From Armatimonadota bacterium (GTDB lineage Bacteria > Armatimonadota > UBA5829 > DTLH01): a stretch of DNA of 15,573 nucleotides. The notes below the pieces were generated by a model that was not told the origin of the DNA, searched no databases, and saw nothing but the letters and a program-made list of their open reading frames with translations. Positions 1,236 through 15,573 of the stretch are shown one piece after another (the stretch's first letter is position 1; every line of letters begins with the position of its first letter). The position numbers were made by a program, and so were the translations under genes. Location of the stretch: positions 1 through 15,573 of the forward strand of contig JBDKSP010000053.1 of assembly GCA_039680575.1 (NCBI GenBank). Reading direction: 5' to 3'.

Positions 1236-2027
1236 ATGTTAGCACTGGCCAATTGTATTGTAACAGTTCAACCAGGCCAACCGCCGCTTGTGACGTTGAC
1301 CGGCGAAGTCAATTACGAGTCCACGGATAGCATAAAGGAAGCTATCGAAGGTCTTCTGCACGATGGCCTGACTCGCATAGCAATGGACTGCAGCTCGGTC
1401 GATTTCATAGATTCGAGCGGGATCGGCACAATCATACGCTGGGCTCAAAAGCTGAGGGCTGCAGGCGGTGAGCTTGTTTTGCGCTCCGCAACGCAGCAGA
1501 CCGTACATGCGCTTCAGATATCCGGCTTTGCCGATTTACTGAATATAGAGCATGTATATGATAGCCCGAGACCAGAGCGAAAGCCCTGTGTAAGCGGGCT
1601 TTGGCAGCAGGTCAAGTTCAGCATTCCGCTTCCGGCTGATAAGAACGGGTTGATTCGGCAGCGCGTGACCGAACTTGCAGAGTCGATGCCGTTTTCTCGA
1701 TACCAGATCGATGATATCAGGCTTGCGGTAGGAGAGGCTGTCTCGAATGCTATCAGGCATGGGTGTAATGGTGGAGAAAGCGACCGGCTTAGCGTCAATT
1801 GCACTGGTGATGAGGAGAAACTGGTAATCAGGGTCCGCTATCCTGGGGATAAGTTCGACCCGGATGCCGTTCCGATTCCCGATCCATGCAACCCACGTGA
1901 AGGCGGGATGGGCATTTATTTCATGAGAGCGTCGATGGATAGTGTCGATTACACCTTCGACGAGACCGGAACAACGGTAACAATGACTAAATATATAGGG
2001 GCAAGAATCAAAAATAATGGCAACTGA
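1236..2027 (+). CDS. Fusion of STAS anti-anti-sigma domain and RsbW/SpoIIAB-like HATPase_c domain
   Basis: N-terminal LTGEVN...VDFIDSSGIG (STAS phospho-Ser motif). C-terminal LAVGEAVSNAIRHG (N-box), EGGMGIYFM (G2 box) and GTTVTMTK. Confidence 0.9.
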   Translation: MLALANCIVTVQPGQPPLVTLTGEVNYESTDSIKEAIEGLLHDGLTRIAMDCSSVDFIDSSGIGTIIRWAQKLRAAGGELVLRSATQQTVHALQISGFADLLNIEHVYDSPRPERKPCVSGLWQQVKFSIPLPADKNGLIRQRVTELAESMPFSRYQIDDIRLAVGEAVSNAIRHGCNGGESDRLSVNCTGDEEKLVIRVRYPGDKFDPDAVPIPDPCNPREGGMGIYFMRASMDSVDYTFDETGTTVTMTKYIGARIKNNGN

Positions 2028-7505: not shown

Positions 7506-8726
7506 TTATTCATAACGCAGCGCTTCTATAGGATCCAACTGTGATGCGGCACGAGCCGGATAATAGCCGAAGAAAACTCCTACAAACGCAGAGAAGCCGA
7601 ATGACAAGAGAATAGACCCAAGCGAAACAGTCGCTTTGAATGATGTCGAAATGCTGCTGATGATCGACGATCCGACCATTCCGAGCAGTATTCCTATCAC
7701 TCCGCCTGCCATCGAAAGCACAAGGGCTTCGACCAGAAACTGCAGTTGAATATCCCTATTTCGTGCTCCAAGAGCTTTTCTTATGCCGATTTCTCTGGTC
7801 CGCTCGGTAACGGAGACTAACATGATGTTCATAACACCTATGCCTCCGACCAGAAGCGAGACGCTCGCTATACCGCCAAGAAGCAGAGATAAGATTTTCG
7901 AGGTCTCACTGGCCATCTCCATAATCTCTGCCTGGTTACGGACGACAAAGTCGTCCTCGGCGCTGTCAGCCAGCCTGTGACGCTTACGCAGAAGCTTTGT
8001 GATCTGGCTGGTTGCCTTGTCCATCTGGGCCATAGTAACAGCCTGAGCATCGATCATGCGGATATACTGCAGACCGAACAGCCTTTGCATTGCAGTCGTG
8101 ACCGGAACCATTATCTGGTCGTCAGGATCGCCGAACCCGCCTGCAGTCCCCTTGCTGGCCAGCACACCTATCACCTGGAACCGGATACCCTTTATACTGA
8201 TCTTCTTACCGACCGGGGACATTTTCCCGAAAAGAGTCTCCGCGGTCGTCGGACCGATGACCGCGAGCGTTCTCATCGCCTTGACATCCCGCATCCTGAA
8301 GAATCTCCCCTTCTTTACGTGATAGTTGCGTATATCAAGATAATCCGGAGTAGTGCCGAGTATAGTCGTATTGGTATTGTTATTGCGAAACTCGGCCTGT
8401 GCCGATCCCGACACTTCTGGAGCTACCTTTGCAATGGCAGAGCATTTTTCGACAACAGCATCCGCATCATCAAGCGTAAGTGTATCCATGCTGCCGAAAC
8501 CGCCCCGGACCGCTCCGCTCTTGGACTGGCCTGACCTGACGATAAGCACGTTAGTGCCCATCTGCTTGATCCGGCTCATCATCTGGCTGCTCGCGCCTCC
8601 CGCAAGAGCCAGCATAGTGATAACCGCGGATACGCCGATGATAATACCAAGCATAGTGAGCGCTGAGCGCATTTTATTTGCGACCAGGCCTTCCAGCGCG
8701 ACAGATATACTCTCAAGAATGTTCAT
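7506..8726 (-). CDS. MacB/FtsX-family ABC transporter permease
   Basis: NKMRSALTMLGIIIGV, VGGIGVMNIMLVSVTERTREIGIRKALGA and YPARAASQLDPIEALRYE. Confidence 0.96.
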   Translation of the reverse strand: MNILESISVALEGLVANKMRSALTMLGIIIGVSAVITMLALAGGASSQMMSRIKQMGTNVLIVRSGQSKSGAVRGGFGSMDTLTLDDADAVVEKCSAIAKVAPEVSGSAQAEFRNNNTNTTILGTTPDYLDIRNYHVKKGRFFRMRDVKAMRTLAVIGPTTAETLFGKMSPVGKKISIKGIRFQVIGVLASKGTAGGFGDPDDQIMVPVTTAMQRLFGLQYIRMIDAQAVTMAQMDKATSQITKLLRKRHRLADSAEDDFVVRNQAEIMEMASETSKILSLLLGGIASVSLLVGGIGVMNIMLVSVTERTREIGIRKALGARNRDIQLQFLVEALVLSMAGGVIGILLGMVGSSIISSISTSFKATVSLGSILLSFGFSAFVGVFFGYYPARAASQLDPIEALRYE

Positions 8727-9451
8727 GACTCTTCCTCCACCGGCAGCTTTGCCAGTACATCCCGCGCTCCTGTCGGATGATCGACCTTCTGATCGGAGAC
8801 GATGTGTCCATCTTTAAAGCGAATTACGCGCTGTGCATGCTTCGCGATGTCTTCCTCGTGAGTGACTATTACAACAGTCTTGCCTTCGGCGTGAAGCTCC
8901 TGGAATATCACCATGATCTCTTCACTTGTCCTGGTATCCAGGTTGCCGGTAGGCTCGTCACCCAATATGATAACCGGGTTGGTGACAAAAGCACGCGCAA
9001 TAGCTACGCGCTGCTGCTGTCCGCCTGAAAGCTCGTTAGGCTTATGGTCTATCCTATCGCCGAGTCCTACACGTTCCAGTGCTGCCCTGGCCTTGGCCTC
9101 AGTGTCGGCAGCATCGGGGTCGTAGAGCATCGGAAGCATCACCTGCTTCAAGGCCGGACGCCTCGGTATCAGGTTGAATGTCTGAAAAACGAACCCGATC
9201 TTGCGATTGCGAACTGCAGCAAGCTGATCGTCGTTCATTCCGGCTACTTCCTGTTTGTCGAGAATGTACGAACCTTCGGTAGGCTTATCGAGGCATCCAA
9301 TGATATTCATGAATGTCGATTTACCGGAGCCGGACGGACCCATAATCGCCACAAACTCTCCTGGCTTGACGTCAAGCGATACTCCCTTTAGGGCGTGGAC
9401 CGCGATGTCACCCATATAGTATGTTTTATGGAGATCTTCTACGTGAATCAT
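8723..9451 (-). CDS. MacB/LolD-family ABC ATP-binding protein
   Basis: Walker [10 protein letters not shown], signature LSGGQQQR, Walker [13 protein letters not shown] and H-loop VTHE; ATGA overlap with the permease gene. Confidence 0.97.
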
Positions 9452-9463
9452 AGTAATTCTCCC

Positions 9464-11137
9464 CTACATTGGTGGTGGTCCGCCGCCGCCAGGACCTTTA
9501 CTGGAGTTACTCTTTGTCGTCGTTTCCTCTTCAGGTATAACAACTTTCTCGCCTTCTTTGAGACCGCTCACGATTTCGCAGTTGTCATTGCCCATCAGTC
9601 CAACCTCGACTTTGCGAACAGACTGCGTCTTTCCGTCATGTCCGATTACTGTAACCTCTGTACCTGCATCCGTCTCGGTGACTGCCTCTACCGGCACAAA
9701 CAACACATCCTCTTTTCGATCGATCACGAAGTCGCAGGCAGCGTTCATCTCAGGCTTTAACCGCGAATCCGCCTGCTCCAGCTCGACCGTTACCGGGACA
9801 GTAGTTACATTGGAATTGACCTCCGCTTCCGGCGCAATCCTGATGACCTTTGCCTGGAACAACTCATCGGGACACGCATCGACACTGACATCGACAGCCT
9901 GGCCGAGTGTTATCTTTCCGACATCTGTCTCGTCGACATCCACGACGACCTGCATCTTGCTTATATCAGCTATATCTACGATAGTGACTCCTGATCCGCT
10001 TCCAGCCATGGCCTGCCGCCCAGCAGTGATGATTGAACCAGACTCAACATATTTCTTGACTACGACACCATCTCTTGGCGCAACAACAGTCGTATAGCCG
10101 AGCTGGGTCTGCGCGTTCTCCAATGCGGCTTTCGATTTCTTCAACTGCGATTGAGCCTGAAGCACTGACTCGCTTTTCATCTGGTCCTGATATGCTGCAG
10201 CGCGGGTGGATGCAAGTGCAGCTAATGATTGTTTCAAAGCTGCCCTTGCGGAAGCCATTTCTCTCTGTTTCAGGTCATCCTGTACTCCATTGGCACGGGC
10301 AGACTCAAGTGCTGATCTGGCCTGCGCTACTTTGGCTTCAGCGGACTTCAAATCCTGGTCGGACTCTTCCTTTATCGTGTCATATTTGCTTTTTGCGCTG
10401 TCAAGCTGGGCTTTCGCAAGCGAATATTGCGCTTCGGCGTCATCTACGTTGCTTTGTGAGACGAATCCCTTCTCCAAAAGGGCCTTCTGGCGTTTAAGAC
10501 TCTTCTCCGCGTTATTATATGACGCCCTGGCCTCGTCATAAGAGGCTTGAGCTGATGACAGCTTCTGCGGGACAGATGCCGACTTCGTTTGCTTCAAGCT
10601 GGCAATAGCCGACTCCAGCGAACTCTGGGCCTGGTTTATCGACTCTCTTGTAAGCTTGGGTTGGACCTTCGCTTCCTGCTCCGCCTGCAGTAACTTCTGC
10701 CTGCTCGACTCAAGCGCCTGCTCTGCGCTGGCTATGTTCGCAACTGTCTGAAGGCGCTGCATGGAAAGCGCCTGTTTGGCTGAGTTTACCTGCGCCTCCG
10801 AGCTCGAATAATCGGCTTTTGACTGCTCCAGGCTCGATATTGAGTCTGAAGGATCGATCTTGGCTATCAACTGACCGGCTTTGACATAGTCACCTTCGTC
10901 CACCGCCAGTTTCATTATCTGGCCGCCAACGTTCGACTTGACTTCCACCGTAGTCACCGGCTGCAGCACTCCATTGCCCGAAACACTGGATAGCACTGTC
11001 CCTCGTGCAACAACAGTAGTCTCAGGCATAACTGTCTTGTTGCCTGATTTTTTCATATGCACTATTACAATAGTGATAATCAGGAGTGCGATCACAGCTA
11101 TTATCAAATATTTTCGGCGCGGCTTTTTACCTTTCAT
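9464..11137 (-). CDS. MacA/HlyD-family periplasmic adaptor with very long alpha-helical hairpin
   Basis: N-terminal TM; lipoyl halves (VDEGDYVKAGQLIAKID and TTVVAPRDGVV); hairpin tip RQKALLEKGFVS; LKPEM and SGLKEGEKV. Confidence 0.93.
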   Translation of the reverse strand: MKGKKPRRKYLIIAVIALLIITIVIVHMKKSGNKTVMPETTVVARGTVLSSVSGNGVLQPVTTVEVKSNVGGQIMKLAVDEGDYVKAGQLIAKIDPSDSISSLEQSKADYSSSEAQVNSAKQALSMQRLQTVANIASAEQALESSRQKLLQAEQEAKVQPKLTRESINQAQSSLESAIASLKQTKSASVPQKLSSAQASYDEARASYNNAEKSLKRQKALLEKGFVSQSNVDDAEAQYSLAKAQLDSAKSKYDTIKEESDQDLKSAEAKVAQARSALESARANGVQDDLKQREMASARAALKQSLAALASTRAAAYQDQMKSESVLQAQSQLKKSKAALENAQTQLGYTTVVAPRDGVVVKKYVESGSIITAGRQAMAGSGSGVTIVDIADISKMQVVVDVDETDVGKITLGQAVDVSVDACPDELFQAKVIRIAPEAEVNSNVTTVPVTVELEQADSRLKPEMNAACDFVIDRKEDVLFVPVEAVTETDAGTEVTVIGHDGKTQSVRKVEVGLMGNDNCEIVSGLKEGEKVVIPEEETTTKSNSSKGPGGGGPPPM

Positions 11138-11147
11138 ATACTCCTCC

Positions 11148-12413
11148 TTACTTGCCTACCGCATACTCCATCTGGGCAACGGCAATGTAATAATCGTAGC
11201 GGGCTTGAACATCATCGCTCTGAGCGGTTATAACCTGCACTTCGGCGTTGAGCAAGTCAAGTGTGGTTCCCAACCCTTGAGAATATCTTTCTTTCTGCGC
11301 CTGATAGTTATTATCAGCAGCATTGAGGCTGAGGTTACTTGCGGTTACCCGCTCCTTGGCGTTCGTCAGATTATAATAGGCCTCTTCCACATCCGAGCGG
11401 ATGTCTCTGCCCACCTGTTCTTCCTCCAACTCCGCATTAGCCTGGTTTATCTTGGCTTCTTTGTAAGCGGCACGATTGGCTCCGCCGTTGAAAATATCGA
11501 ATACCATCCCGCCGACCATTTGAGAACCGCCCGTCGTGAACCCGCCGGACACTTTTCGCTGATATTCAGCGGTTATTGTCGGACGAGGATAAAGGGATAT
11601 CTTTGCGGATTTGACCGATGCCTTTGCCGATCCTATTGCCGCCTGGCTCTCCATAATATCCGGACGAGCCGTGAGCGCCGTGGTCATATATTCATCCAAA
11701 GGCTTTGACTCAACAGCCGGTGTCCCGTCCACCTCAGCTACATCGAACCCGGGCTGCGATGAGAGCCCCATGACATTCTGCAGTTGGATGGTAGATGTGC
11801 GGACGGTATTTTGAGCCGATAAGAGGCTTACGCGCGCGCTTGCAAGCTGTGCTTCTATGGGAAGGATATCTACTTTTGCTGCCGCACCCACTTCGGCACG
11901 GGCTTTCACCTGGTCAAGCAGACCCTCGTTGTAAGTCACGTTCGCCTCTGCCACCCCGGCAAGATGCCGCGCGCGGAGGACTTCATAATAAGCCTTACTC
12001 ACGTTATACTCCACAGTCTGCACAGTACGCGTCAACTTGGCTGTATTCTGCGTCATACCATACTTCGCCGACTGCACATTTGTCTCACGCAGCCCACCGT
12101 CGAATATATTCTGGCTCACGGTAAGGGCAGTCCCTGTGGTCGTCTTGTTGAGTACCCCGTCAGAACCCCATGTGAAAGCGTTGTTCTGTACCGACATCTG
12201 CGGAAGATAGTCGCTTTTTGCGCTGATGGAACGGTTTTTAGCTGCCGTAACGTTGTTTTTTGCGGTCAGAACATCTACATTGCTGCTCATCGCAATTCCG
12301 ATGCACTCCTCTAGTGAAAGCGGCTTGCTTTTCTGCACTTCTTCCGCTGCAGTGCAAAAAGTGGATACCGCAAGCAGTGCAATAAGCCAAAATAAGAACC
12401 TTGCTATCCTCAC
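11148..12413 (-). CDS. TolC-family outer membrane efflux protein
   Basis: Signal peptide, LSLEECIGIAMS, DYLPQMS, IFDGG/IFNGG repeats and ERYSQGLGTTLDLLNAE; GTG start behind AAGGAGG overlaps the marR stop. Confidence 0.93.
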   Translation of the reverse strand: MRIARFLFWLIALLAVSTFCTAAEEVQKSKPLSLEECIGIAMSSNVDVLTAKNNVTAAKNRSISAKSDYLPQMSVQNNAFTWGSDGVLNKTTTGTALTVSQNIFDGGLRETNVQSAKYGMTQNTAKLTRTVQTVEYNVSKAYYEVLRARHLAGVAEANVTYNEGLLDQVKARAEVGAAAKVDILPIEAQLASARVSLLSAQNTVRTSTIQLQNVMGLSSQPGFDVAEVDGTPAVESKPLDEYMTTALTARPDIMESQAAIGSAKASVKSAKISLYPRPTITAEYQRKVSGGFTTGGSQMVGGMVFDIFNGGANRAAYKEAKINQANAELEEEQVGRDIRSDVEEAYYNLTNAKERVTASNLSLNAADNNYQAQKERYSQGLGTTLDLLNAEVQVITAQSDDVQARYDYYIAVAQMEYAVGK

Positions 12414-12898
12414 AGCTTATATACCTCCTTCTCTGTCAGCTTCTCGACAGGATTGAGAAGACAAGTCGAAAGCGCTTTACGAAGGAGATCCATTACAAGG
12501 TTCACCATCAAGCACTCATTTGGCGTAAAAACCGATAGTTTCTCTTTGAGAAGCGACATACTGCTATTACTGATGACGTTTAAAGCCTCTTCACCCTCGC
12601 CGGTGAGCGCTAACGTCAACTTTCTTCTATCATGTTCGGCTGTAGCGCGGACAACATAGCCGCGTTCCACCAAACCATCCAGCAATTTCGATGCCGACGA
12701 AATAGTGCAGCCAATATGTCCAGATAGAATGGAGAGCGACGTACCCTGCTGATCTCTGATGGTCATCAGCGCTGCTACCTGGCGGATAGACAGCGCTGTA
12801 GGGGTGCGCCTGTTCATCTCTGTTCCGATTGATTGCAGGACCATATGGCAAGTTTCCATTACTTTTGCCGCGCATTGGTCTATAACATCATTTGACAT
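12410..12898 (-). CDS. MarR-family transcriptional regulator, 162 aa
   Basis: SSASKLLDGLVERGYVVR...HDRRKLTLALTGEG winged-helix motif; start set at ATG 12898 behind AAGGAGG. Confidence 0.93.
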   Translation of the reverse strand: MSNDVIDQCAAKVMETCHMVLQSIGTEMNRRTPTALSIRQVAALMTIRDQQGTSLSILSGHIGCTISSASKLLDGLVERGYVVRATAEHDRRKLTLALTGEGEEALNVISNSSMSLLKEKLSVFTPNECLMVNLVMDLLRKALSTCLLNPVEKLTEKEVYKL

Positions 12899-12916
12899 AG
12901 ACAGCCTCCTTCCTAT

Positions 12917-12935
12917 TATTTGACGATTGCAACTA
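12917..12935. promoter_or_regulatory. Candidate MarR operator 1
   Basis: TATTTGA-N5-GCAACTA, an imperfect inverted repeat overlapping the -10 element of the marR promoter. Confidence 0.5.
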
Positions 12936-13049: not shown

Positions 13050-13068
13050 TACTTGACTCATTCAAGTA
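13050..13068. promoter_or_regulatory. Candidate MarR operator 2
   Basis: Perfect inverted repeat TACTTGA-N5-TCAAGTA, same architecture as operator 1. Confidence 0.55.
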
Positions 13069-13094: not shown

Positions 13095-13589
13095 ATGAGC
13101 GTAAGTGCATTAAGCAACAGCTCCATAGCGAGCCTTACCGAACTCTACGGGACGCAAGAAACCAGTTCTGTGTCGTCTTCGACATCGACAACTGCTTCAA
13201 GCATCCTTGACCGGTCCGATTCTCTCGACATATCGGGGCCGGCAGAAATGTTCAGTAAACTTCAGGAACTGGCAGAGTCCGACCCTGAAAAGTTTAAAGA
13301 AGTCTGCTCCGACATAGCCGACAAACTTAAAAGCGCGGCAGAGGACCAGACCGGGAAAGACGCTGAAATGCTGACCGATATGGCAAATAAGTTCGAAAGC
13401 GCTGCCGAAAGCGGCGACGCATCTGAACTCCAACCTCAAGGCCCGCCGCCTCCGCCTCCCCCCGCGGGAGGTGCTCAGGGAGCAGCCAACGAGTACTCGC
13501 AACAGCAGGATGAAAGCAACAAGCCCAGCAGTGATATACAAGACCTGATGTCCAGTATATTCGACGAAATAAGCGAAGCAATTGCTTGA
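13095..13589 (+). CDS. Acidic Ser-rich hypothetical protein with poly-Pro tract and no Sec signal
   Basis: AGGAGG SD; 164-aa ORF; Ser/Thr-rich N-terminus and DSLDISGPA motif. Confidence 0.85.
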   Translation: MSVSALSNSSIASLTELYGTQETSSVSSSTSTTASSILDRSDSLDISGPAEMFSKLQELAESDPEKFKEVCSDIADKLKSAAEDQTGKDAEMLTDMANKFESAAESGDASELQPQGPPPPPPPAGGAQGAANEYSQQQDESNKPSSDIQDLMSSIFDEISEAIA

Positions 13590-13593
13590 TCAC

Positions 13594-13751
13594 AGATTTT
13601 CGGCTGTTCTATTACAACCAATCGTATATAGCCGAAAACCTTCCGATGAGTTTCAGGCGTGACTCACGCCTGAAACTCACTAAAGAATTTTGGGCAATAG
13701 AGTTTTGGCTGAAATGATATTGCTTACTCATACATCAACCGCCAAAACTCT
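13594..13751. repeat. Triple-hairpin intergenic element
   Basis: AGATTTTCGGCT...AGCCGAAAACCT; perfect 16+1+16 palindrome at 13647-13679; AGAGTTTTGGC...GCCAAAACTCT. The left part is homologous to 15453-15528. Confidence 0.8.
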
Positions 13752-13964
13752 TTAGGTATCAAGCGCCATGCGCAGGATTTCCATCGCAAGATTAGTCATT
13801 TCACACTCACCGGGCGTCAATATCTCCAGTTTTTCCTTGAGATACGCCGCCGATTCAGCGCTTATGTCCGCTGGTGTGCAATCACCAGAGTCGGTAAGAC
13901 TAAGGATCAGGCGATGCACATCCATTACACTGGCTGTGCATTGAGCCACTAAATCCTCTTTCAT
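13752..13964 (-). CDS. Mini-MarR, 70 aa: MarR dimerisation helices without the winged helix-turn-helix
   Basis: AAAGGA SD. Residues 1-18 align to MarR 1-18 (7 identical); residues 19-70 align without gaps to MarR 94-145 (26 of 52 identical). Confidence 0.75.
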   Translation of the reverse strand: MKEDLVAQCTASVMDVHRLILSLTDSGDCTPADISAESAAYLKEKLEILTPGECEMTNLAMEILRMALDT

Positions 13965-13984
13965 GAAAGCAGTCCTTTCACTGA

Positions 13985-14497
13985 TCACCTGTTCATACCA
14001 GGAGGCGGTCCAGCCGGTCCCTGTCCCTGTGGAGGCTGGTCCATTTTCATCGCTTTCTGCAGTTTGGCCGACTGGCTTGCCGTCAGCACCAACCTCATCC
14101 TGGTCCAGGTGTCGATACTTGCAGTCACAATCTTGGCCTCAGCCTTCTCTGCCTTAGCCGCAATGATTTTGACGTTTTTAGAGTTGTATTTGGACGCCAG
14201 CATTGCTGAACGCAGCGCATTGGATGACTTCGCGGCACTCGACCGGAGCGGACGCAGGGTCTTATCGCCATCCGCGGCAATTTTCTTCAGTTTTGCCGTC
14301 TGGGTTTTAGTAAGCTTAAGCGTTTTGGACATGTGATCGATCATACCCGCCTGCGGCGTTATCACCGCTGACTGAGGACATGCTGCCATACTCGCCATCA
14401 TACCACCGGGACCGCCTCGACGACCGCTTTGGCTCCAGACAGCCACTGCGGAAATCACTATCGCCAGTACTGCTGCTACCAATACTATTTTTTTCAT
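13985..14497 (-). CDS. Spy/CpxP-like LTxxQ periplasmic protein (basic paralog)
   Basis: AGGAGG SD, signal peptide ending VWS-Q, LKLTKTQ and VLTASQ motifs. Confidence 0.82.
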   Translation of the reverse strand: MKKIVLVAAVLAIVISAVAVWSQSGRRGGPGGMMASMAACPQSAVITPQAGMIDHMSKTLKLTKTQTAKLKKIAADGDKTLRPLRSSAAKSSNALRSAMLASKYNSKNVKIIAAKAEKAEAKIVTASIDTWTRMRLVLTASQSAKLQKAMKMDQPPQGQGPAGPPPGMNR

Positions 14498-14727: not shown

Positions 14728-15264
14728 TTACCGCTCCGGTGCAGGCGGTGGTGTAGAGTCGTCCGCACCAGGTGGGGGGCCAGACGGTCTCTGTCCCGAA
14801 CCTTGTCTAGTAGTCATAGTCTCCTGCAGCGTTTTGACCTGATCCGTGGTAAGGATCGCCCTGATCTGCACCCATTCATCTATGATCGCGCTGACCACGG
14901 CAGATTCAGCCTTCTCCGCTTTCTCTGCAAGAGCCTTTACGTTCTCAACACTGAAATCTTCAGCCAACACTGCTGTTTTGAGCGCTTTTGAAGCCTCGGT
15001 TGATTTCTTGGAAAGCGCACTTACAGTCTCTTCGCTTTTTGTCAGGACCGTTTTGAGTTTCGATGTCTGATCTTCAGTGAGCTGAAGCGATTCAGACAGG
15101 CGGTCAAGCGATGCTGACTGGGGAGGCATTACCGCCATTAATGGGCAGGACATAGCGGATCCGCCCCTTCCTCCCGGACCACCGGAGCCTGGCCCCTGGC
15201 TCCATACCGGTGATGCACACACGCCTATCGCCAGCGCCACTGCAACTAAAATAGTGTTCTTCAT
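14728..15264 (-). CDS. Spy/CpxP-like LTxxQ periplasmic protein (near-neutral paralog)
   Basis: AAGGAGG SD, signal peptide ending VWS-Q, LQLTEDQ and ILTTDQ motifs; colinear with the 13985-14497 protein (shared KAEKAE, IDxW). Confidence 0.82.
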   Translation of the reverse strand: MKNTILVAVALAIGVCASPVWSQGPGSGGPGGRGGSAMSCPLMAVMPPQSASLDRLSESLQLTEDQTSKLKTVLTKSEETVSALSKKSTEASKALKTAVLAEDFSVENVKALAEKAEKAESAVVSAIIDEWVQIRAILTTDQVKTLQETMTTRQGSGQRPSGPPPGADDSTPPPAPER

Positions 15265-15452
15265 CTCAGGTTCCTCCTTACGAATAACGCTTGGATTGAC
15301 ATTTGGTTACTGCCTGCTCCTTTTACATGTTACCACGAGAGCTCAGCAGCAAAGATCACAAGAACATCATAATTCCGTTTAATGAGTTTCAGTTGATCAT
15401 GATTTCCGCCCCCGCATCATCGCGGGGGCAGACAAACGTGATTTCTACCTAT

Positions 15453-15569
15453 AGATTTTCGGCTGATTAATTAACAGCCAGTCATATATTGGTTGTTGCC
15501 GAAAATCTTCCGGAAGAGTTTCAGGTGTAAGTGTAAAATCAACAGATAAAGCTACATCAGAGAACTGTT
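15453..15569 (+). repeat. Longest copy of the hairpin + GAGTTTCAGG repeat element
   Basis: Perfect 11-bp arms AGATTTTCGGC/GCCGAAAATCT. The 5' part matches 13594-13660 and the 3' part matches 6764-6817. Confidence 0.75.
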
Positions 15570-15573
15570 TATA

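Follow-up and report, generated by a model that had tools for sequence, protein, structure and literature searches.

In Bacillus subtilis, the small protein SinI binds the repressor SinR via residues conserved between the two proteins and abolishes its DNA binding (PMC3163267). Similarly, two further reports describe TrlR of Agrobacterium, which lacks a DNA-binding domain, as forming inactive heterodimers with TraR (PMC13043044), and CerN of Cereibacter, which lacks the helix-turn-helix (HTH), as counteracting CerM (PMC11655674). MicroProteins are defined as small single-domain proteins that are related to a transcription factor and keep only its interaction domain (PMC9638782). Here we describe a 70-aa open reading frame (ORF), called mini-MarR, which by homology is a paralogue of a neighboring MarR repressor that keeps helices 1, 5 and 6 and is without the winged helix. 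This ORF resides at positions 13752..13964 (minus strand) of a 15,573-nt contig from an Armatimonadota bacterium. The whole contig (C53, hereafter the window) is one of the 122 contigs of the analyzed genome (G000, 2.97 Mb).

How does this locus compare with the described systems? Like mini-MarR, SinI is a small protein homologous to the oligomerization helices of a repressor, encoded nearby and under separate control. However, SinR is an HTH protein of the Xre type whose multimerization domain is a separate one at the C-terminus, and SinI matches a single contiguous end of SinR, whereas mini-MarR belongs to the MarR family and owes to an internal deletion the joining of its N-terminal helix to the two C-terminal ones. 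Furthermore, heterodimer binding has been seen for SinI, whereas mini-MarR is known here from sequence and models. TrlR and CerN resemble mini-MarR in being paralogues without a DNA-binding domain and act as dominant-negative inhibitors through protein-protein binding, but these LuxR-type proteins are truncated at the C-terminus and still contain a ligand-binding domain of ~170 aa, unlike a 70-aa MarR derivative with an internal deletion. The eukaryotic microProteins of the LITTLE ZIPPER / ID type likewise preserve the interaction domain of a transcription factor on its own, but come mostly from the bHLH, HD-ZIP and similar families of eukaryotes. Finally, the full-length MarR of the window is an ordinary member of the group of efflux repressors that includes ST1710 (2eb7), MepR and MprA/EmrR, in that it matches PF01047, heads an efflux operon and has palindromes in its promoter region. 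Mini-MarR is unlike these proteins in having neither helices 2-4 nor the wing.

Relative to SinI, TrlR and CerN, the new elements are the MarR family, the size of only 70 aa, and an internal deletion that fuses non-contiguous interface helices instead of a terminal truncation. A search of the literature, limited to one library and to the phrasings used, yielded no paper on a MarR protein without its winged helix or on a bacterial MarR microProtein. In common with anti-regulators, mini-MarR is homologous only to the oligomerization part of its presumed target and not to the DNA-binding part. Like them, too, it is present alongside its full-length target and is maintained by selection, as seen in the analyzed genome and a second genome of the same genus (G001), between which the ratio of non-synonymous to synonymous rates (dN/dS) is 0.16.

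Homology of mini-MarR to the neighboring MarR

The mini-MarR coding sequence begins with an ATG at 13964, ends with a TAA stop codon at 13752-13754, and specifies 70 aa that include Cys9, Cys29 and Cys54. A Shine-Dalgarno sequence, AAAGGA (13973-13978, minus strand), is located 8 nt 5′ of the ATG, and the ORF begins 20 nt past an LTXXQ gene whose stop codon occupies 13985-13987; both features had been noted in the original prediction. Two alternative start sites are available. A GTG at 13988 would yield a protein of 78 aa, with the GTGA overlapping the stop codon of the upstream LTXXQ gene, and a GTG at codon 6 corresponds to the 65-aa database record P0001. The ATG at 13964 appears to be the best choice, as it agrees with both the MarR N-terminus and the Shine-Dalgarno sequence.

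The presumed partner is a full-length MarR of 162 aa, counted from its ATG, that is encoded at 12410..12898 on the same strand. BLASTP aligns the two proteins in two collinear blocks. The stronger block pairs mini-MarR residues 15-70 with MarR residues 90-145 (27/56 identical, 48%; E 2e-14). The second, weak block pairs residues 1-44 of both proteins (E 2e-4), and its true similarity is confined to the first 14-18 residues, where 7 of 14 columns are identical. Residue 70 of mini-MarR aligns with MarR residue 145 and the gap spans MarR 15-89, so that the two proteins differ by one in-frame gap of 75 codons, just as the original prediction had claimed. When all 2.97 Mb of the genome were searched in six frames, the adjacent MarR was the sole match besides mini-MarR itself (E 8.7e-10). 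Moreover, when a four-row profile was used to search the genomes of the phylum, its N-terminal block alone matched the MarR N-terminus (E 2.9e-4). Because of this genome-wide result and the separate N-terminal match, the likeness between the two proteins is not attributable to chance.

It had also been proposed that the gap takes out exactly the HTH and the DRR wing motif. The loss of the winged helix is borne out, but the precise boundary is not, since the junction is ambiguous by about four residues (mini-MarR DVHR aligns with either ETCH of helix 1 or DRRK of the wing), and the sequence of the second wing strand is kept (LTLALT in MarR, LILSLT in mini-MarR). Farther downstream, the hydrophobic pattern of helix 6, TPxECxMxNLxMxxLRxAL, is almost unaltered. 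Judging from these alignments, the ancestor of mini-MarR was a copy of the local MarR that lost approximately 75 codons in frame, comprising helices 2-4 and the first wing strand.

Family searches draw the same distinction between the two proteins. The neighboring MarR scores 36.6 bits on PF01047 (cut-off 24.6), and its best solved relatives are 2qww (E 5e-6) and 2eb7 (E 9e-6). Mini-MarR matches no Pfam family at E <= 0.1, and no winged-helix DNA-binding model of Pfam or NCBIfam. The winged HTH that PF01047 describes, formed by helices 2-4 and the beta wing, is absent from mini-MarR as judged by the Pfam search, the alignment gap and the AlphaFold2 model. Without these parts, mini-MarR is not classifiable as a MarR-type DNA-binding protein. 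What it does possess is the MarR dimerization module, in that helix 1 and helices 5 and 6 are homologous to the family according to BLASTP, the profile search and the helix boundaries.

The structure predicted by AlphaFold2 for mini-MarR consists of three helices (2-24, 36-46 and 51-69) and no strand, with a mean pLDDT of 87.4 and a pTM of 0.73. The model of MarR places helix 1 at residues 2-24, the same extent as in mini-MarR, followed by the winged helix (38-98), helix 5 (100-121) and helix 6 (126-148). The former second wing strand is modeled in mini-MarR as a continuation or end of helix 1. The product would therefore be helix 1 joined via this former strand to helices 5 and 6, which together would make up a MarR dimerization module. 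Fold comparisons with the mini-MarR model gave few leads. Foldseek returned no match in the PDB at E <= 0.001, and the best Z among the 48,161 chains compared by VIA-align was 6.8, for generic helical bundles, with no MarR protein among the best 50 rows, a result that is uninformative for a helical protein of 70 aa. The top clusters of an ESM Atlas search (0.90-0.91) were unnamed and offered no usable lead.

Selection on mini-MarR and the spread of short forms

The original prediction had allowed that the ORF could be a deletion remnant, which might be suspected if close relatives carried a full-length MarR at this position and the deletion were unique to this genome. This is not so. G001 carries the same 70-aa form in synteny with 88% identity (record P0002), in the order LTXXQ genes, 70-aa ORF, convergent 168-aa gene and marR-tolC-hlyD, and mini-MarR and MarR are about 1 kb apart in both genomes. 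The reading frame is free of indels and stop codons in three lineages, down to 70% identity, which agrees with the earlier observation of an intact frame. Among the sequencing data, DNA run X2 represents a near-identical strain with one difference in mini-MarR, at position 13776, which is read as synonymous (Ile63).

A comparison of the G000 and G001 genes by the method of Nei and Gojobori (NG86) gives 15 synonymous and 10 non-synonymous differences (Sd and Nd), a dS of 0.40 and a dN/dS of 0.16, which is far from the value near 1 that the original prediction had named as evidence for decay. The same measure is 0.21 for marR, 0.28 and 0.22 for the two LTXXQ genes, 0.15 for the gene of a 164-aa protein described below, and 0.10 for both tolC and hlyD. 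When only the marR codons homologous to mini-MarR are counted, the value is 0.155, equaling the constraint on mini-MarR. The differences in mini-MarR are distributed as 6, 4 and 15 over the first, second and third codon positions, and 10 of the 25 are non-synonymous against a neutral share of 0.77 (binomial p = 7e-5). Furthermore, 25 of the 26 nt that precede the ATG, a stretch that includes the Shine-Dalgarno sequence, are identical in G001.

On these comparative data, mini-MarR is a genuine gene kept by selection. We consider it highly improbable that the ORF is instead a functionless, slowly decaying remnant of a duplicated marR that is still open because it is short and young. Such a remnant would suit the narrow distribution of the short form (2 of 401 genomes of the phylum), the lack of an RNA contig on mini-MarR and the mobile repeat that lies against its stop codon in G000. 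None of the marks of a pseudogene, namely relaxed constraint, a broken frame or restriction to a single genome, is found, however, and the dN/dS, the conserved Shine-Dalgarno region, the intact frames and the pair of proteins in a third lineage (see below) make decay unlikely. Barely credible is the notion that the region is conserved for a non-coding reason, as a 3′ untranslated region or RNA element of the LTXXQ operon with an untranslated ORF. A strong hairpin downstream does demonstrate that RNA structure exists in the region, but substitutions gather at third codon positions, the homology to MarR is that of a protein in two blocks, the window contains no Rfam family at gathering score, and each of the other five frames either is interrupted by stop codons in one or both genomes or has no known similarity.

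Beyond this genus, short forms are rare. A search of 5.8 billion proteins recovered three short records: P0001, which is mini-MarR itself, P0002 (70 aa, 88%), and P0003, a protein of 90 aa that is 70% identical across all 70 residues of mini-MarR and differs in its tail. In a search with the full-length MarR, P0016 was recovered as a full MarR that is 80% identical to that of the window. The records of P0003 and P0016 agree in their contig figures (two contigs each, the longest 7634), and from this agreement the short form and the full MarR apparently lie on one contig in a third lineage. The short form therefore is not unique to the analyzed genome, as the original prediction had asked of relatives.

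Among 61 relatives and 401 genomes of the phylum, only G000 and G001 have a short frame that is matched from position 1 of the profile. Fifteen of the 16 other matching phylum genomes have frames of 154-219 aa that are matched from profile position 11-22. We take these frames to be full-length MarRs; the one inspected is the 170-aa MarR of G004, a genome of the same family in which marR-tolC adjoins hemB and no block of LTXXQ genes and mini-MarR is present. The remaining match (G083, a 126-aa frame with two stop codons, profile positions 6-78) is a chance match to an acyl carrier protein gene between fabG and fabF. A scan of metagenomes with mini-MarR likewise produced chance matches at two loci (L023 and L024) that encode an IS3-type transposase region. 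The scan of genome contigs found only the G001 record, and of the 26 candidates from a search for longer homologous proteins, not one reached E <= 0.001.

When 1.84 billion representative proteins were searched with a profile, 11 matches at E <= 0.001 emerged, P0002 among them. Five are full-length MarR-like proteins of 147-160 aa that are matched at their C-terminal 50-65 residues, and three, at 602-2482 aa, are long and are each matched more than once. P0012 (115 aa) begins at helix 2 and keeps the HTH, and it may be a 5′-truncated MarR. P0009 (83 aa), a distant short form, has the same helix 1-helix 5-helix 6 architecture as mini-MarR, and its BLASTP alignment with the full-length P0007 likewise falls into one N-terminal and one C-terminal block. 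Across the 55 columns common to all short forms, P0009 resembles the short forms of the mini-MarR type (g1; 20-21 residues shared) no more than it does full MarRs (15-25 shared). In a maximum-likelihood tree, the three g1-type short forms constitute a clade with support 99/99 and a stem of 0.68, whereas P0009 groups with the MarRs P0007, P0008 and P0010 (support 83/90, not starred). None of 200 bootstrap trees unites the four short forms, although the starred branches on their own are not enough to require two origins. The position of P0009 in another MarR clade is thus a hint of a second origin, and two independent deletions of the winged helix, one in the g1 lineage and one in the P0009 lineage, are favored by the tree but not established.

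Operons flanking mini-MarR and candidate operators

The marR gene is the first of a marR-tolC-hlyD-macB block on the minus strand. Its stop codon is overlapped by the start of a gene for an outer-membrane efflux protein (OEP/TolC-like, 11148..12413), beyond which are a gene for an HlyD-type membrane-fusion protein (9464..11137) and the region 7506..9451, which encodes an ATP-binding cassette (ABC) ATPase (8723-9451) and a MacB-type permease (7506-8726). Divergent from marR and convergent with mini-MarR is the gene for an acidic protein of 164 aa (13095..13589, plus strand). This protein has a Ser/Thr-rich start and a PPPPPPP run, is 88% identical in G001, and matched no family above the cut-offs in family searches. 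Its gene, conserved with a dN/dS of 0.15, is likely under MarR control.

Two palindromes with the consensus TAnTTGA-N5-TCAAnTA sit in the intergenic region between marR and the 164-aa gene. The palindrome at 13050..13068 is perfect (TACTTGA-N5-TCAAGTA), and that at 12917..12935 is an imperfect copy with three mismatches (TATTTGA-N5-GCAACTA). In G001 the first has one arm change, the arms of the second are identical, and both spacers differ. Arms that are kept while spacers differ are what operators would exhibit, and we therefore regard both palindromes as candidate MarR operators, bearing in mind that 26 of 200 shuffles also give two or more matches at the same stringency.

Mini-MarR is part of a transcription unit distinct from that of marR, in which it is the last gene after two LTXXQ / Metal_resist genes and has its own Shine-Dalgarno sequence and a hairpin downstream. 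The first of these genes (13985..14497, minus strand) encodes a Spy/CpxP-like periplasmic protein and lies directly upstream of mini-MarR; the second (14728..15264) belongs to the same strand block. Both proteins carry signal peptides and are weakly similar to Spy (24.9 bits) and CpxP. G001 has a third LTXXQ gene upstream, and genes for an OmpR-type response regulator and a HAMP/HisKA kinase that are divergent from the operon of three LTXXQ genes and mini-MarR (L022, 5567-7532 on the minus strand and 7727-10212 on the plus strand). We take this layout to resemble that of cpxRA/cpxP. The G000 contig ends before the region that would match the two-component pair. A short ORF at 15445-15573 (minus strand) is cut by this contig end and has 66 aa in G001 (L022, 8286-8486, minus strand); it is conserved in both genomes between LTXXQ genes and overlaps repeat-like sequence.

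The hairpin, located at 13646..13680 between the convergent mini-MarR and 164-aa genes, has a 16-bp stem and is conserved in G001. Its predicted energy is -28.6 kcal/mol (z -7.1), a value equaled by 0 of 200 shuffles, and it is a candidate bidirectional terminator. A consensus scan for promoters and terminators found three promoter-like sites where 3.4 are expected, and no terminator by its rule. A copy of a dispersed repeat of ~57 nt (13699..13755) lies between the hairpin and mini-MarR and overlaps the mini-MarR stop codon. The repeat has 40 matches across the G000 contigs and is absent from this site in G001. Related repeat pieces are found near 15444-15530, and many contigs of DNA run X2 start or stop at this repeat. 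Elsewhere in the window, the ORF at 1236-2027 (plus strand) fuses a STAS domain to an RsbW-like HATPase_c_2 kinase domain, which is an architecture of anti-sigma antagonist plus anti-sigma kinase.

Proposed pairing with MarR and competing readings

The dimer interface of MarR proteins is formed by helices 1, 5 and 6. With moderate confidence, we propose that mini-MarR is a dimerization-only paralogue that forms one-winged heterodimers with MarR and thereby relieves repression of marR-tolC-macAB. Mini-MarR would be produced as the last cistron of the Spy/CpxP-like LTXXQ operon. Upon induction of this operon, the 70-aa protein would pair with newly made MarR protomers via helices 1, 5 and 6. The resulting heterodimer would carry one winged helix rather than two, and would for this reason bind poorly to the palindromes at 13050-13068 and 12917-12935. 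MarR would then repress marR-tolC-hlyD-macB and the divergent 164-aa gene less strongly.

The complex prediction called for in the original prediction agrees with this proposal to a limited degree. For MarR plus mini-MarR, the ipSAE is 0.56 (0.55-0.56 in three runs), compared with 0.01 for the best of three controls, and the runs share at least 84% of contacts with a partner pLDDT of at least 71. In a benchmark, 116 of 157 solved complexes and 2 of 215 mismatched pairs attained the ipSAE mark; those that attained it with a score of 0.60 or under were only 18 of the 157 solved complexes, together with both mismatched pairs that passed. These counts apply only roughly here, as alignments made for this analysis were used. 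Because MarR homodimers have already been solved, the pass may show likeness to them and not binding, and it lends weak support to the pairing.

Several observations weigh against the proposal. The complex score falls in a band that is more often wrong than right unless the pairing is likely beforehand. MarR dimers are generally stable, and poisoning would therefore need co-synthesis or high levels of mini-MarR. The confident, closed three-helix monomer implies that mini-MarR might be self-sufficient and need no MarR partner. At up to three mismatches there is no palindrome upstream of the LTXXQ genes (both matches in the window are in the marR intergenic region), so that no feedback loop is visible. 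The metatranscriptome (RNA) contigs X4, X6 and X7 cover marR only (12425-12900) and none covers mini-MarR, though such contigs speak for neither presence nor absence. The family is narrow, with the short form in two of the 401 Armatimonadota genomes (G000 and G001), and the dN/dS of mini-MarR comes from one genome pair with 25 differences.

Might mini-MarR act independently of MarR altogether? It could be a stand-alone three-helix protein, either a homodimeric bundle with another partner or a thiol sensor or buffer that is made together with the LTXXQ envelope-stress proteins. We consider this rather unlikely, but several facts are in keeping with it: the confident fold without a partner (pLDDT 87.4, pTM 0.73), the additional conserved Cys29, the identity to MarR at only 28 of 55 shared positions, and a place in the LTXXQ operon instead of the marR operon. 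The long stem of 0.68 below the short-form clade, with short tips beyond it, also points to remodeling after the deletion. Yet what has been retained corresponds exactly to the non-contiguous elements from which the MarR dimer interface is built, with the helix 6 pattern almost unchanged, and mini-MarR always accompanies a full MarR of the same clade (in G000, G001 and, by inference, the P0003/P0016 contig). Nor did fold searches point to a specific alternative family (no match with Foldseek, best Z 6.8 with VIA-align).

The cysteines raise the possibility that heterodimerization involves more than subunit poisoning. Across 12 MarRs of the subfamily, two cysteines hardly vary, namely Cys9, located in helix 1, and Cys129, where helix 6 starts, and all four short forms keep Cys9 and Cys54, the latter being the equivalent of MarR Cys129. 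As both subfamily cysteines are kept in every short form, pairing between MarR and mini-MarR may be redox-sensitive, and the conserved pair suggests redox chemistry at the interface. In OhrR proteins of the 2-Cys type, a cysteine in the N-terminal helix 1 and a C-terminal cysteine form an intersubunit disulfide, and the placement of the pair here resembles that pattern. Mini-MarR could therefore pair with MarR as a redox co-sensor and not as a simple poison, such that, under oxidative, electrophile or metal stress, disulfides link its Cys9 and Cys54 to MarR Cys129 and Cys9, and the repressor is inactivated only when envelope and redox stress combine. Dimeric OhrR is reported to be inactivated once a single active site is oxidized (PMC2651793). 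The LTXXQ / Metal_resist neighbors likewise suggest a stress context. In the opposite direction, the score of MarR on NF052638, the OhrR model of NCBIfam, is only 16.9 bits against a cut-off of 200, and mini-MarR does not match this model; the window has no ohr or peroxiredoxin gene; and conserved cysteines can be structural. Overall, we judge the co-sensor role improbable.

A bolder version of subunit poisoning, which we hold to be distinctly unlikely, combines several of these elements. Mini-MarRs would be recurrent, with at least two origins (the g1 and P0009 lineages), both through internal loss of the winged helix, and in the present case an envelope-stress regulon, leading from the two-component system to the LTXXQ operon, would be coupled to derepression of a MacAB-TolC-type efflux pump through poisoning of MarR subunits, with Cys9 and Cys54 serving as a redox-gated covalent trap.

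Few bacterial regulators of efflux, stress and virulence genes are as common as the MarR repressors, and their switching is attributed to small ligands, oxidation or metals that act on the dimer itself. If the proposed pairing of mini-MarR with MarR is correct, a switch at the protein level, namely subunit poisoning by a paralogue, would be added to the repertoire of this family. It would also mean that microProtein logic, familiar from eukaryotes and a handful of bacterial examples (SinI, TrlR, CerN), is attainable when an internal deletion brings non-contiguous interface helices together, and mini-MarR would then represent a compact, genetically encoded MarR antagonist for use in synthetic circuits.

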